Shown: piece after piece, positions 1-44,343 of the stretch
Position numbering within the stretch: the stretch's first letter is position 1
Layout: each line of letters opens with the position of its first letter
Source: a virus
Lineage: Duplodnaviria > Heunggongvirae > Uroviricota > Caudoviricetes
Virus record (IMG/VR): IMGVR_UViG_2651869695_000003
DNA: 64,000 nt
Strand: one strand, 5' to 3'
Translations under genes and position numbers: made by a program
Notes under the pieces: model-generated
Told to the model about the DNA's origin: nothing
The model's input: the letters and a program-made list of their open reading frames with translations, nothing else
Database searches by the model: none

Positions 1-591
1 TCAATGGCAACGGATAACTGTGCCCGCTGGGTGTTGTCTGTTGTGCGTCGGGATCTCGGTTTTGATGATAGTCACGTTGTGACAATACCGGAACTGTGCT
101 GGTGGCTGATTCGTAATGACCTGGCGGATGCCTTACCGGAAAGTGCAGCCCGTAAGGCACTGAGATTACCGAAGCCTGTTGTGCAGGCGGTCACCCGGGA
201 AAGTGACCTTGTGCCTTCGGTTCCTGCCACCAGCATTATCCAGGATAAAGCGAAAAAGGTGCTGGCGCTGAAAGTGGATCCGGAGTCGCTGGAGTCTTTT
301 ATGTTACGCCCAAAACGCCGCCGCTGGGTTAATGAAAAGTACACGCGCTGGGTTAAGACACAGCCGTGTGCATGTTGTGGAAAGCCTGCTGATGATCCCC
401 ACCACCTGATAGGTCACGGTCAGGGTGGAATGGGTACAAAAGCGCATGACCTCTTTGTGTTGCCTTTGTGCAGAAAGCATCACGACGAGCTGCATGCGGA
501 TACCGTGGCATTTGAAGAGAAGTATGGCTCCCAACTGGAGCTGATATTTCGTTTTATCGATCGCGCGCTGGCGATTGGGGTGTTGGCCTGA
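1..591 (+). CDS. DUF968/YdfU-like prophage early-region protein, C-terminal part (5' end left of window)
   Basis: ORF open to window edge; identical to C-terminal ~196 aa of the full 331-aa copy at 46175..47170; Cys/His-rich C-terminus (CxxC...HH...H). Confidence 0.5.
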   Translation, partial: SMATDNCARWVLSVVRRDLGFDDSHVVTIPELCWWLIRNDLADALPESAARKALRLPKPVVQAVTRESDLVPSVPATSIIQDKAKKVLALKVDPESLESFMLRPKRRRWVNEKYTRWVKTQPCACCGKPADDPHHLIGHGQGGMGTKAHDLFVLPLCRKHHDELHADTVAFEEKYGSQLELIFRFIDRALAIGVLA

Positions 592-605
592 TTTGGTGGA
601 GAAAG

Positions 606-974
606 TTGATGCGTGATATTCAGATGGTTCTGGAGCGTTGGGGAGCATGGGCGGCGAGTGATAGTTCTGGAGTAGACTATTCGCCTATAGCTGCTGGGTT
701 TAAGGGGCTTCTTCCCTACACAAGCAAAACACGTCAGGCTTGTTCAGATAGTGATGCATTAATTATTGAAGGTTGTCTTGCTCGTCTAAAGCAAAAAAAG
801 CCAGATGAGCACTCGCTGCTTGTGGCACATTATTTATACAGAATATCCAAGCGTAAGATTGCAAAGGTGCGTGGAAAGGATGAAAAATTGGTACGCATAG
901 AAATACAACTAGCCGAAGGATTTATTGATGGTTGCCTTTCAATGTTGGATTTTAACCTTGAAATGGACGCTTAG
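606..974 (+). CDS. Late-gene antitermination protein Q (QuuD-like)
   Basis: N-terminus MRDIQMVLERWGAWAA... and C-terminal ...EGxxDGxLxMLDxxLEMD match my recollection of E. coli prophage Q antiterminators; position upstream of lysis genes. Confidence 0.7.
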   Translation: MMRDIQMVLERWGAWAASDSSGVDYSPIAAGFKGLLPYTSKTRQACSDSDALIIEGCLARLKQKKPDEHSLLVAHYLYRISKRKIAKVRGKDEKLVRIEIQLAEGFIDGCLSMLDFNLEMDA

Positions 975-980
975 GGTTGC

Positions 981-1010
981 ACAGGTTGGCCCCATATGAG
1001 GCCAACCTGT
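981..1010. other. 11-bp-stem hairpin between convergent Q and cassette membrane gene (possible bidirectional terminator)
   Basis: ACAGGTTGGCC-N8-GGCCAACCTGT read directly; no clear T-run. Confidence 0.3.
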
Positions 1011-1471
1011 CACAAGTGGGGGAAGATTTTTCGTAACACTAACCAACACCTTCCGAAGGTATATAGCGAAATTATAAGGGAGGATAAGCCTAACAGTATG
1101 AACAGGAAATCAATAGGTTTGCCCGCAACAATAACATCATCAGGTAGAAACATCGCTATCAATGGAAATATACATGCGACGATGAGAGTTAACCCTGTTG
1201 AAAGTAATCTATTTACCAGAGTTGGTAACACGTTGTTTTGCTTAAGGGCATTAATTGCTCCTTCCTTATCGCTGTTTGCACTACTAAATATAGATATTGC
1301 AGCCAGAACAAAACCAAACAGGATGCCTGATATAGTCGAGAGCACCCCCGCTGTTGTGAGTACGTCAGCATGCTTCATCGGTTTAAACAGTTTTGTCGCT
1401 GCATAGGTCAACAGAATCCAGAGGACGCATTTCCAGAGAAAAGTGGCTAATTCTCTCATTGTGTCCTCCAT
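1010..1471 (-). CDS. Four-TM small membrane protein (cassette gene 2), function unknown
   Basis: 153-aa ORF with four hydrophobic helices; AT-rich; directly downstream of 313-aa ORF on same strand, antisense to phage late operon. Confidence 0.55.
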   Translation of the reverse strand: MEDTMRELATFLWKCVLWILLTYAATKLFKPMKHADVLTTAGVLSTISGILFGFVLAAISIFSSANSDKEGAINALKQNNVLPTLVNRLLSTGLTLIVACIFPLIAMFLPDDVIVAGKPIDFLFILLGLSSLIISLYTFGRCWLVLRKIFPHL

Positions 1472-1480
1472 GCTTGGTTA

Positions 1481-2422
1481 TTAGTCTCTGCTAGCGAGCT
1501 CATACTGTGCAAGATAGTTCGCGTTATCAATTTTAGCAGATATCATCGCCGTTCTGATATCAGAATCGGATGGATAACCGCTTTTGACAATGATTGTCTT
1601 TGTACTGACCAATACTTGGTCAAGTAGACTTTTGGGCGTTCTATTGGATGGCTCTGTTACATCAATTTTTTTAATTTTTAGACCTCCAGAACCTTTTGGA
1701 AAAAGTTCAAGTAGTTCCTTAATAGCATCGGTGACAGAAGTTTTTAGATAGTTAAACCCTTGTTTTTTCGGGCGAATCCGACCTCGCATATTTAATCTTA
1801 GATGCGACCCGCCCATACCAACAACCATGTCAATAATTTCATTAGCTAAAGGGTTTTTAATCTTATAATTAGCTTTGTTAAAGTTTCTTGGAGCAGCAAC
1901 TATAAGATCGAAACTACGTAGGATATTTCCGTCCTCAAGCAGTTCCTTCATGCTCTCTTGTTTCCAAATGGCTTCAAAAGTGACGCTTTTTAAATCAGTT
2001 TTGTTATACAAAATGAATGCCAGATCATTTACTTTGGGCCCTATATGGTTGAGGGTCATAGCTAATAAGTCCGTTTCGTAGTAATAGATAAAATATGTTC
2101 TTTCAACTACAGAATCTTTATCATTTAAAGGAATTGTTCTCTCACTACCTGTAGCATCCTCGATGAACGGTAGTAGGCATTCCCTTCTCCACGATACGTA
2201 ACCAAAGTAACATTGCAGTGTGGTATCTTTTTGAAGAATAACTAACTTTAACCCTCGACTTGGGGTGTCTGTTGTGTAAGTTATTGGAAAAGTTACAGTA
2301 TCTGCTGTGGTCATTTGCTCAAAGGCTAGTTTTGCAGCAGATGTGCCATATTTTTTGCTTCCATTACCAGTGAAAAAACCAACTCTCACTCGCCTGGTTT
2401 TATTCTTATTTTCTGTACTCAT
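1481..2422 (-). CDS. Hypothetical 313-aa cytoplasmic protein (cassette gene 1), candidate defence/exclusion factor
   Basis: Long AT-rich ORF, no recognised motif by eye; located in Q-to-lysis moron hotspot. Confidence 0.55.
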   Translation of the reverse strand: MSTENKNKTRRVRVGFFTGNGSKKYGTSAAKLAFEQMTTADTVTFPITYTTDTPSRGLKLVILQKDTTLQCYFGYVSWRRECLLPFIEDATGSERTIPLNDKDSVVERTYFIYYYETDLLAMTLNHIGPKVNDLAFILYNKTDLKSVTFEAIWKQESMKELLEDGNILRSFDLIVAAPRNFNKANYKIKNPLANEIIDMVVGMGGSHLRLNMRGRIRPKKQGFNYLKTSVTDAIKELLELFPKGSGGLKIKKIDVTEPSNRTPKSLLDQVLVSTKTIIVKSGYPSDSDIRTAMISAKIDNANYLAQYELASRD

Positions 2423-2544
2423 TATCGATCCGAAATAATTTTAGCAACCGTGTGAAAAATACAACAAAAAAAAGAGGAAATCATTAGCGCGGTCCGCAAA
2501 AAACATTGTAATCTGTTAAGAGTGGTTACTTCGCCACACAGCTT

Positions 2545-2575
2545 AAACCCGCCGTCGAGCGGGTTTTGTCGTTTC
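2545..2575 (+). terminator. Rho-independent terminator (tR'-like) upstream of holin
   Basis: AAACCCGC-CGTCGA-GCGGGTTT hairpin followed by TGTCGTTTCT. Confidence 0.5.
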
Positions 2576-2718
2576 TGTGGCTGGGGATTCGTTGGTCCTG
2601 GCCTATTCCGCAGTTCTCCATCGGTTCGGCTTCTTTGATGTTTCCGCTTCTGATTTGCGGTACATGATGTTCCCTCAATTTGCACCTGCTGTATCAGCGA
2701 GGTGAGAGATAACTACAA

Positions 2719-3045
2719 ATGCCTCATAACCCAAATACCTGGCTGGAGTTGGTCCAGAGCTGGTGGCGTGGAGACACACCGCTGGGCGCAGTGATTATGT
2801 CGATCGTTATGGCTGGCTTGCGCATTGCCTATTTTGGCGGTGGTGGTGGCTGGAAACGAAAAACGCTCGAGATTTTGCTCTGTGGTGCTCTGACGCTGAC
2901 TTTTGCATCCGCTCTTGAGTATGTCGGATGGCCTAAATCTCTTTCTGTTGCCATTGGTGGCGGCGTTGGGCTGATCGGGGTCGATGCTATTCGTGGGGCT
3001 GCAATGAGAGTAATCGGTAATAAGTTTGGTGGCTCTAAGGAGTAA
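2719..3045 (+). CDS. Holin, lambda S-like
   Basis: 108 aa, hydrophobic helices, charged C-terminus, immediately upstream of endolysin; pattern resembles lambda S. Confidence 0.7.
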   Translation: MPHNPNTWLELVQSWWRGDTPLGAVIMSIVMAGLRIAYFGGGGGWKRKTLEILLCGALTLTFASALEYVGWPKSLSVAIGGGVGLIGVDAIRGAAMRVIGNKFGGSKE

Positions 3046-3048
3046 TTT

Positions 3049-3531
3049 ATGCAGGTACTAAATTCCCAGCGTAAAGCTTTCCTCGATATGGTGGCATGGT
3101 CAGAAGGAACGGATAACGGGCGACAACCGACACGTAACCACGGTTATGACGTTATTGTCGGAGGTGAACTGTTCACTGATTACTCCGATCACCCTCGCAA
3201 ACTTGTCACGCTAAACCCGAAACTTAAATCAACAGCCGCAGGACGTTATCAGCTTCTTTCACGCTGGTGGGATGCTTACCGTAAGCAGCTTGGGCTGAAA
3301 GACTTCTCTCCAAAAAGCCAGGATGCTGTGGCATTGCAGCAGATTAAAGAGCGTGGTGCTTTACCGATGATTGATCGCGGCGATATCCGTCAGGCTATTG
3401 ATCGTTGCAGCAATATCTGGGCGTCATTGCCGGGCGCTGGTTATGGTCAGTTCGAACATAAGGTTGACAGCCTGATTGAAAAATTCAAAGAATCGGGCGG
3501 AACGGTCAGAGAAATTCAGCTATATGAGTAG
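3049..3531 (+). CDS. R: Endolysin, lambda R-type lytic transglycosylase
   Basis: Translation near-identical to lambda R as I recall it ([21 protein letters not shown]...[24 protein letters not shown]...). Confidence 0.85.
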
Positions 3532-3988
3532 AGTAACTGCGATTCTGTCCTCTCTGGTTATCTGCACCATCGTCTGCCTATCATGGGCTGTTAATCATTA
3601 TCGTGATAACGCCATCGCCTACAAAGAACAGCGCGATAAAGCGAAGGAAAAACTCAGCCAGGCGAACGCCACCATTACTGAGATGCAGCAGCGCCAGCGT
3701 GATGTTTCTGCGCTCGATGCGAAATACACCGGAGAACTTGCAAATGCTAAAGCAACTATTGAACAGCTTCAGCGTGATGTTGCTGTTGGCACTAAGCGGC
3801 TGTTCCTCGCCGCTAGTTGCCCGAGAGTGCAATCAACGACCATTACCACCAGCCTGGATGATGCTACCGCCCCCCGACTTACTGACACCGCTCAACGGGA
3901 TTATTTCACCCTCAGAGAGAGAATTGAAATCAGTTATAAACAGATAAGAGCATTGCAGGACTATATCTCTAGTCAGTGTGAAAAATAA
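3524..3988 (+). CDS. Rz: i-spanin Rz
   Basis: Start ATG overlaps R stop (ATGAGTAG); MSRVTAI...[15 protein letters not shown] matches lambda Rz N-terminus; ORF track start 3476 is an upstream extension. Confidence 0.8.
3744..3947 (+). CDS. Rz1: o-spanin Rz1 lipoprotein, embedded in Rz in +1 frame
   Basis: Signal peptide ending ...LLALSGC then [27 protein letters not shown], matching lambda Rz1 proline-rich motif; taken from internal Met of 114-aa ORF. Confidence 0.75.
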
Positions 3989-4069: not shown

Positions 4070-4828
4070 ATGAAAAGAAAAAAATTAGAAGGTCCCGGGT
4101 GTGAATCATATGAAGGGTTAGATGTTGAATATTATATTGATTCCGAAACGGGGGAATTTAAAGCGGTTTATACATTCAATAATGAAATTGTAGATCGCAT
4201 AAAATTGAGTGGGCGTATTGCCGATAGAGCATCTTCACTGTCCCTAATTCATAGGGACTTAAAAAGTGCTAAAGAGTGGTACCAAATAGCTAATGAACTG
4301 GCAGGGAGAAACGAATTAAGGACAGATGGCAAGTTATACGGGAATATACTTGATCTAGATTTATCAAGTGAAATTAGAGCGTTATTTGTGGCAAGCCTAA
4401 CGTTTTATGGTAAAGCTTTCTCTGAAGCTAAAGGGAGAAAGTTAAAGATGGAGCGTGATTGGCTTGATTCTGAATATTTTGGGTTGCATGACTGTATTAT
4501 TAACTACAGGCATAATTTTGCAGCACATAGCGGCAACCAAGACTATGAGTCAGCAGAAACTTCATTGTTACTAATAAGGAAAAATGGGAAAACATTTTAT
4601 CAAGCAGTGACAGATAGAAAACAACTGAGCATGATTGGTGTCGAGGACGAGCATGTTGATATGATTAATTTATTTGAACATGCGATACAGGTTGTTGAGA
4701 AAAAATATAATGAAACATTAGAGAGAATTAGAACCTATGTCATGCAAAAGAGTTATTCTTTTTGGTGTTTAGCTGCCACAGGGAAAGATCCCGTCAATTT
4801 AGATAAGTTAAATAAGAAGAAAAAATAA
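4070..4828 (+). CDS. Hypothetical AT-rich moron protein between Rz and HNH
   Basis: 252-aa ORF from first ATG (ORF track starts at TTG 4046); low GC versus neighbours; no recognisable domain. Confidence 0.45.
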   Translation: MKRKKLEGPGCESYEGLDVEYYIDSETGEFKAVYTFNNEIVDRIKLSGRIADRASSLSLIHRDLKSAKEWYQIANELAGRNELRTDGKLYGNILDLDLSSEIRALFVASLTFYGKAFSEAKGRKLKMERDWLDSEYFGLHDCIINYRHNFAAHSGNQDYESAETSLLLIRKNGKTFYQAVTDRKQLSMIGVEDEHVDMINLFEHAIQVVEKKYNETLERIRTYVMQKSYSFWCLAATGKDPVNLDKLNKKKK

Positions 4829-44047: not shown

Positions 44048-44190
44048 TTGTAGTTATCTCTCACCTCGCTGATACAGCAGGTGCAAATTGAGGGAACATC
44101 ATGTACCGCAAATCAGAAGCGGAAACATCAAAGAAGCCGAACCGATGGAGAACTGCGGAATAGGCCAGGACCAACGAATCCCCAGCCACA

Positions 44191-44221
44191 GAAACGACAA
44201 AACCCGCTCGACGGCGGGTTT
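44191..44221 (-). terminator. tR'-like rho-independent terminator (copy 2)
   Basis: Inverted copy of 2545..2575. Confidence 0.5.
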
Positions 44222-44343
44222 AAGCTGTGTGGCGAAGTAACCACTCTTAACAGATTACAATGTTTTTTGCGGACCGCGCTAATGATTTCCTCTTTTTTTT
44301 GTTGTATTTTTCACACGGTTGCTAAAATTATTTCGGATCGATA

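Follow-up and report, generated by a model that had tools for sequence, protein, structure and literature searches.

A probable Q-dependent late promoter module beyond an antisense cassette in a Caudoviricetes prophage sequence

Where does late transcription start when an antisense cassette stands between the antiterminator gene Q and the lysis genes? We addressed this question in a 64,000-nucleotide stretch of Caudoviricetes DNA (IMG/VR virus record IMGVR_UViG_2651869695_000003; hereafter the window), in which two minus-strand genes lie between Q and the holin gene. A preliminary description, made from the letters alone, had placed the Q-utilisation promoter within 2430–2540, past the cassette, with 2545–2575 as the tR' terminator of that promoter. 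Our analysis makes it very likely that window 2475–2575 is the phage's Q-dependent late promoter module (pR'-tR').

Gene layout and the cassette

The features of the region are collected in Table 1. Q, of the PF06530 family, lies upstream of the module on the same strand, but 1.5 kb off rather than adjacent. Its product is 75–87% identical to the Qs of PhiR49_2 (75%) and cdtI, about 50% to those of SfII and DLP12, 48–50% to that of 933W and 27% to that of phage 21. The S and R genes share 93–96% DNA identity with those of SfII and SfIV, and the gap between cassette gene 1 and the holin is 296 bp. The ORF list, the Pfam matches and the terminator scan agree with the preliminary description that Q ends at 974 and that an antisense cassette precedes the best pre-holin terminator. 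Based on gene layout and terminator scan, its account of the sequence was therefore correct, while the promoter had been pure inference.

Table 1. Features at the window start and of the second, inverted copy (window coordinates; footprint positions relative to the predicted start)
Feature	Position	Strand	Basis or remark
DUF968/HNH gene	4–591	+	ORF list; Pfam
Antiterminator Q gene, 122 aa, Q21/933W family	606–974	+	PF06530, E 4e-51 over entire model; phrog_79
Hairpin with 11–13-bp perfect stem, between convergent Q gene and cassette 3' end	981–1009		insert left edge
Cassette gene 2, 153-aa hydrophobic protein	1010–1471	-	ORF list; phrog_8552 (unknown function)
Cassette gene 1, 313-aa protein	1481–2422	-	ORF list; phrog_7651 (unknown function)
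Candidate cassette promoter: -35 TTGTTG (2467–2462), 18-bp spacer, -10 TAAAAT (2443–2438)	2438–2467	-	read from sequence
UP-like A-tract position of predicted pR' (-46..-38); upstream limit of conserved module, right edge of insert	2475–2483	+	footprint
CGCGGTCCGCA containing palindrome GCGGTCCGC (about -32..-24); candidate Q-binding element	2488–2498	+	footprint
Predicted pR' -10 hexamer TAATCT	2509–2514	+	footprint; aligns with 933W TATCAT
Near-invariant block TAAGAGTGGTTACTTCGCCAC: predicted start (about 2521) and first 17 transcribed bases	2517–2537	+	footprint
tR' intrinsic terminator: AAACCCGC-CGTCGA-GCGGGTTT then TGTCGTTTCT	2545–2575	+	top of terminator scan; minimum-energy fold
First late-gene block: holin, endolysin, Rz-like spanin region	2719–3988	+
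Holin S, lambda-type	2719–3045	+	PF05106, E 6e-25
Endolysin R	3049–3531	+	first late genes
Second identical copy of 2423–2718 region	44048–44343	-	self-BLAST; module motif match 44241–44277

The insert of about 1.5 kb spans 975, just past the Q stop, to about 2474, immediately before the position of the UP-like tract, and carries two genes at a GC content of 0.36–0.43 versus about 0.53 in the flanks. The hairpin at its left edge folds at -27.3 kcal/mol (z -4.8, minus strand) and has no T-run on either strand. Different hairpins stand at this place in the cdtI and SfII loci: every cargo type comes with one of its own between the convergent Q gene and its 3' end (cdtI 2923–2948 and SfII 1322–1345 in locus-sequence coordinates, window 981–1009), and that of cdtI is a textbook bidirectional terminator, AAAAAAGGGCA-TTTC-TGCCCTTTTT.

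The product of cassette gene 2 is probably a membrane protein. Searches of both cassette proteins against Pfam, PADLOC and NCBIfam gave no match and placed the cassette in no known anti-phage defence family of these collections; the only matches were PHROGs without known function. Homologues of cassette gene 1 occupy the equivalent position in cdtI and in 14 IMG/VR loci. The candidate cassette promoter, read from the letters of the window, would fit into the 52 bp at its disposal, but it was missed by the consensus scan and is not conserved among homologous cassettes. Any cassette promoter must fit into about 50 bp, between 2422 and about 2475, and would therefore stand back to back with pR'. 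The preliminary description had proposed a 300-bp region shared with a divergent cassette promoter; the sharing is upheld, with only these roughly 50 bp left for the predicted cassette promoter. The cassette has the marks of a moron, namely deviant GC, a 3' hairpin, variable presence (absent from 19 loci, with other cargo in its place in further ones) and a predicted promoter. It is a self-contained insert with its putative promoter region at 2423–2474 and its 3' hairpin at 981–1009.

Two further observations concern the late genes. A 252-aa ORF at 4070–4828 on the plus strand, of low GC (0.33–0.38), separates the spanin genes from the HNH/terminase genes. Its only match was phrog_8440 (unknown function), with Pfam, PADLOC and NCBIfam searches blank, and it looks like a second cargo gene, sense-oriented within the late operon. 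Directly 5' of the holin start (window 2660–2718), the stretch TTCCCTCAATTTGCACCTGCTGTATCAGCGAGGTG is also present in DLP12 (4355–4398 of the DLP12 locus sequence), and so precedes both the lambda-S-type holin here and the S21-type holin of DLP12/434B, which is unrelated to it. Its retention before unrelated holins suggests shared translational control or a leader element.

Self-BLAST showed that window 1–22539 is 100% identical to the reverse complement of 24227–46765 (22,539 bp). The 1,687-bp centre between the duplicates is an invertible tail-fibre segment with two alternative fibre C-termini, one common N-terminus and assembly genes. The complete genome of E. coli R12 (NZ_CP066740.1), which matches window 550–3100 with 100% identity, holds the same prophage in one copy, with pinE and the ssrA attachment region behind it. 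Given this single copy, the duplication looks like a fold-back assembly artefact at Pin-invertible repeats.

Position of the late promoter and its terminator

A consensus sigma-70 scan of the plus strand from 975 to 2718, including 2423–2540, returned zero promoters. For 2423–2540 this is explained by the poor -35 of the predicted promoter, as GCGCGG stands at that position and no -35 is recognisable. The promoter was found, after this generic scan, by homology and phylogenetic footprinting. In a phage-genome BLAST, homology past the cassette picks up again at about 2478–2485, and the module core is present in 361 phage records, most Stx phages among them. In the cassette-free PhiR49_2, with its 75%-identical Q, the same ~90 bp starts 11 bp past the Q stop, and among cassette-free relatives as a whole (PhiR49_2 and 19 IMG/VR loci) the module begins 0–11 bp past it. 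Beyond an antisense insert, the module is found in the window, cdtI, SfII, Stx2a_WGPS2, 434B and K-12 DLP12. These alignments show that the module travels with the late genes and is conserved whatever the cargo. In the window it stands physically apart from Q, and the lysis genes come directly after it.

The module aligns base for base with the 933W region annotated as pR', 'qut' and first terminator, where pR' is given as TTTACG, 16 bp, TATCAT. For Sakai Sp5 and Sp15, the PR' start was determined by dRNA-seq and the 3' end by Term-seq, 258 nt apart (Sy et al., 2020; PMC7547250), and Sp5 is identical to 933W in the pR' region. Measured 258 nt back from the T-tract in which the second 933W terminator ends, the start falls inside TAAGAG, 5–7 nt after TATCAT. 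In 933W coordinates, this position depends on the RNA being 258 nt long and on its 3' end lying in the T-tract, the coordinates in the Sakai paper being those of an older genome version. When the 258-nt StxS-long RNA was compared with the window by BLAST, its nt 1–46 aligned with 2521–2567. By homology, the -10 of the window would be TAATCT and the start about 2521; this start is carried over from 933W/Sakai, where Q shares only 48% identity with that of the window, and the exact site is a prediction. An RNA ended at the hairpin would be roughly 47–55 nt long.

The likeness to 933W and Sakai Sp5 covers homologous DNA from the -10 to the first hairpin (TA...T, 2 nt, TAAGAGTGGTTAC..., GC hairpin and T-tract), a palindrome equally far upstream and a Q of the same Pfam family. 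Unlike in the window, the 933W module adjoins Q and has a usable -35 (TTTACG). The 933W RNA extends as far as a second terminator, at +258, and StxS arises from it by processing, whereas the window has one terminator, with no second one between its hairpin and the holin start 144 bp on. A pR'-qut-tR' region of H-19B has reportedly been described by Neely and Friedman in 1998.

The footprint drew on 80 IMG/VR loci with a Q 73–99% identical to that of the window, on the other fetched loci and on the window itself. The motif, CGCGGTCCGCA, 18 nt and TAAGAGT, occurred in 77 loci in 45 distinct variants. An A-tract occupies the position of a proximal UP subsite, with A at 87–93% at -44..-41, 78% at -45 and 60% at -46; the window bases there, AGGAAATCA, match it poorly. 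The consensus for this subsite is said to be AAAAAARNR, from Estrem et al. in 1999. Further downstream, T at -36 was found in 100% and C at -33 in 91% of variants, GCGGTCCGCA at -32..-23 in 98–100%, and -22..-13 were variable. The -10 followed with T at -12 (84%), A at -11 (100%), T at -9 (84%) and T at -7 (100%), and positions -6..+6, +9, +10, +13 and +15..+17 were conserved at 91–100%, except 82% at -5. Such a footprint is what a real -10 leaves when its -35 is poor and an UP-like tract aids it.

Two other -10 candidates were rejected. CATTGT at 2504–2509, which has a phage-21-like spacing to TAAGAG, carries the key A in just 53% of variants, and no -10-like hexamer stands there in 434B/DLP12 or 933W. 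The extended -10 TGTTAAGAG, with a start at about 2529, is without T-7 and would place the mapped Sakai 3' end 8–9 nt past the T-tract.

The block TAAGAGTGGTTACTTCGCCAC is probably the Q-loading and pause region. TAAGAGT is conserved and resembles TAAGCTG of phage 21, but overlaps the start instead of lying at +2..+8. In TGGTTACTT (+3..+11) a TGn is present, with the key A missing and differences among the variants. Across the 45 variants, no candidate for a sigma-dependent pause element in the initial transcribed region fits the TAnnnT rule consistently.

The same conservation could reflect an RNA rather than a promoter, with the block being mainly a StxS-like small regulatory RNA gene and the lysis genes driven from elsewhere. 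In Stx phages, the short PR'-tR' RNA functions as an sRNA that binds Hfq (PMC7547250), the transcribed block from +1 to +26 is highly conserved across Q clades, and a 5' stem GUGGU/GCCAC can be drawn at +2..+17. However, the homology covers only nt 1–46 of the 258-nt StxS precursor; our initial equation of the shared core with the 74-nt StxS was rejected, as the core matches the 5' end of the precursor and nothing in the window corresponds to the functional 74-nt StxS. An Rfam search of 900–2800 returned nothing, and the 53 leader variants contain no compensatory changes in the 5' stem. Nor would an RNA function account for the promoter footprint further upstream or for the sequence changes that go with the Q clade. 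We therefore consider this explanation improbable, while noting that sRNA and promoter roles are compatible with each other.

In the consensus terminator scan, 2545–2566 with the tail TGTCGTTTCT ranked first, with a stem of 8 bp including 5 G-C pairs. The remaining plus-strand matches between Q and the holin have 5-bp stems and lie within the cassette (1246–1260, 2251–2266). As 5 terminator-like sites were observed in the region versus 2.3 expected, the site count alone is weak evidence and the case is carried by conservation. A hairpin with T-tract stands at the equivalent place in 48 of the 53 distinct leader variants of related phages. The stems are of 20 different kinds and end at a median distance of 46.5 nt from the start. 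The fold of RNA 2521–2580 includes the terminator hairpin (-19.6 kcal/mol, z -2.1). Thus fold and leader variants both favour the proposal that this hairpin is the tR' of the late promoter. An intrinsic terminator shortly 3' of the promoter and before the late genes, as a pR'-qut-tR' module has it, is present here.

The U-tract of the window hairpin is interrupted (UUUUGUCGUUUCU). In 933W 2227–2249, equal to Sakai 867–889 (locus-sequence coordinates), a hairpin with 7 T is homologous to window 2545–2575. Within the PR' transcript it covers +27..+49, but the RNA that was mapped has 258 nt and ends at the second terminator. Since this RNA exists, the first hairpin must be read through there at some frequency, a hairpin that goes undiscussed in Sy et al. 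(2020; PMC7547250). The window hairpin may accordingly be leaky too, and the holin would be exposed if it were as leaky as that of Sakai.

Finally, the late promoter might lie immediately 3' of Q, at about 975–1010, so that Q-modified polymerase would run antisense through the cassette and 2545–2575 would be merely a distal terminator. In lambda, phage 21 and 933W pR' does adjoin Q, and Q-modified polymerase is able to cross hairpins like 981–1009. Against this, the consensus scan found no promoter-like site in 975–1010, which is occupied by a cassette-specific hairpin that differs between cassette types. The conserved promoter footprint and the element specific to the Q clade are always on the far side of the insert. 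A motif search of the window detected no module copy adjoining Q, the sole other one being at 44241–44277 on the minus strand. We regard a promoter next to Q as highly improbable. Homology and footprint place the promoter of the 2475–2575 module at about 2475–2521, within the interval that the preliminary description had proposed.

A clade-specific palindrome and the proposed action of Q

To the left of the -10, the module differs between Q clades. CGCGGTCCGCA gives way to CGCGTACGC in the SfII-Q clade (72 of 75 loci) and to TTTACGTACGT in the QuuD clade (75 of 76), with the same core downstream. The palindrome itself is GCGGTCCGC in the window clade, GCGTACGC in the SfII-Q clade (72/75) and ACGTACGT, within TTTACGTACGTAAA, in the QuuD clade (75/76); 933W has ACGATCGT in contrast to that of the window. 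The palindrome thus covaries with the Q clade over three clades and about 200 loci, whereas the sequence from the -10 onward is unchanged. Because it tracks the Q clade, the palindrome is a candidate Q-binding site, and it may be the Q-binding element (QBE) or part of one.

The phage 21 record OL657228, citing Guo et al. (1991), gives a -35, QBE, -10, start, pause element and terminator at +3..+50, and the QBE lies between -35 and -10 (PMC6606751). It consists of two direct TGAGCA repeats (Shi et al., 2019), and the late region is also treated in Yin 2019. Phage 21 resembles the window in Q family (27% identity), compact layout, a terminator end ~50 nt downstream and TAAG at the start region. 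It differs in having a consensus -35, the direct repeats ATTGAGCA and AATGAGCA as QBE, a defined pause element TAAGCTG at +2..+8 and no insert between Q and pR'; the sequences of its elements are not conserved in the window. The compact layout annotated in phage 21 indicates that a tR' within ~50 nt of the start is normal for this Q family. The palindrome overlaps in position with the phage 21 QBE (given as about -27..-12 in that record), and no direct repeats like those of that QBE were found. Since the phage 21 QBE is a direct repeat and not a palindrome, assigning a QBE here relies on position and covariation.

By analogy with the established mechanism of Q in lambda and phage 21, pR' would fire constitutively and, without Q, the polymerase would halt at tR' after an RNA of roughly 50 nt. 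Q would act through a DNA site, probably the palindrome, and would engage a polymerase that is predicted to pause near the start. The modified polymerase would then pass tR' into the holin, endolysin, spanin, packaging and virion genes. If Q works through a DNA site, the 1.5 kb between the gene and its site is immaterial.

As the cassette sits between the Q stop and the upstream edge of pR', late transcription from this promoter would never cross it. Early rightward transcription leaving Q would oppose the cassette. The preliminary description had explained the arrangement by the avoidance of a collision, which is valid for late transcription but not for early transcription through Q, which would meet the cassette head-on. 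We speculate that this opposition explains the orientation bias of the cargo described below.

The proximity of the two promoters bears on the suggestion of the preliminary description that cassette and late expression could be coupled. Via the shared 2423–2520, this might happen by the UP/A-tract, by supercoiling or by Q or another protein at the palindrome that would also control the cassette promoter. Between the candidate -35 positions of the cassette promoter and pR' there are about 20 bp, including an A/T tract. In some cargo types the first ATG is just 35–40 bp away from the palindrome, and the cargo promoter of those types must overlap pR'. On the other hand, pR' is unchanged in 19 cassette-free loci and alongside about 30 unrelated cargo architectures, upstream sequences are unrelated even between homologous cassettes, and the module contains no conserved minus-strand promoter. 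That pR' is the same with no cassette or with dozens of unrelated ones argues against a specific coupling element. Coupling is, moreover, a regulatory claim beyond the reach of sequence alone. Generic divergent-promoter effects between cassette and pR' are possible, but we consider coupling as such rather unlikely.

Cargo at the Q/pR' junction

The preliminary description had treated the late promoter as displaced, i.e. as an exception. This view did not hold, since an insert lies between the Q stop and the module in 184 of 203 related loci from three Q clades (the other 19 are without a cassette), and K-12 DLP12 (quuD-nmpC-essD), cdtI, SfII and an Stx2a phage have this layout in common with the window. 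The cargo comprises 47 protein clusters and shows about 30 architectures. Among its 276 ORFs with a length of 80 aa or more, 274 are antisense. A late promoter far from Q is normal here because the Q-pR' gap is a common landing site for antisense cargo. Of 5,426 complete E. coli genomes, 39 carry the Q-cassette-pR'-holin arrangement of the window (550–3100, at least 80% coverage). One of these 39 is a 100-kb plasmid record, NZ_CP104632.1, and parts of 550–3100 match 4,000 genomes.

Elsewhere, the cargo at the junction includes candidate defence systems, with a KAP NTPase (PDC-S20), PDC-S42, TIR-TM, a PDC-M68A-like HNH protein, NYN and an SDH-type protease. SfII gp49-gp50 (1334–2948 of the SfII locus sequence) correspond to PDC-M53A/B, and the DLP12 cargo is the porin nmpC. 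Many cargo clusters are without annotation and several are defence-like.

DLP12, and 434B, which took up a DLP12 segment, have the same architecture as the window, with Q, an antisense cargo gene (there the porin nmpC), the module (TTTACGTACGTAAAAAATTGGTTATGCTGTTAAGAGTGGTTAC..., hairpin) and a holin in this order. DLP12 differs in Q clade (50% identity), palindrome, its IS5-disrupted porin cargo and an S21-like holin. The genome paper of SfIV names a 'moron' between Q and the lysis cassette (PMC3851460). This moron and the P2/P4 hotspots (PMC9122126) are like the window in that a low-GC autonomous insert, equipped with a promoter and a terminator and bearing diverse, partly defence-like cargo, occupies a fixed junction with conserved phage genes on either side. 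Compared with morons and P2/P4 hotspots, the junction described here is base-defined, between the Q stop and the pR' upstream edge, and the orientation is nearly always antisense. A literature search, of incomplete coverage, for a Q/pR' hotspot or a palindromic QBE returned only the SfIV 'moron' remark.

The architecture as such is already known from K-12 DLP12, 933W-type promoters and SfII/SfIV. What may be new is the antisense-only, base-precise cargo hotspot together with the clade-specific palindromic candidate QBE. We tentatively propose that the Q-stop/pR'-edge junction is an undescribed, base-precise hotspot, in lambdoid phages with a PF06530-type Q, for largely defence-like cargo, linked to a clade-specific palindrome read by Q, although this proposal has somewhat less than an even chance of being right. 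If true, the cargo would be expressed in the lysogen from its own promoter, and no late transcript would ever cross it. After prophage induction, early rightward transcription would run head-on against it. Recognition of a short palindrome by Q would then contrast with the direct-repeat QBE of phage 21.

For the annotation of the window, these results place the late start and the leader end and put the cassette outside the late operon. The clade palindrome is a testable candidate DNA site for the Qs of these clades. The Q/pR' junction provides a sharply bounded place to harvest prophage cargo, with candidate defence genes that include the cassette of the window.
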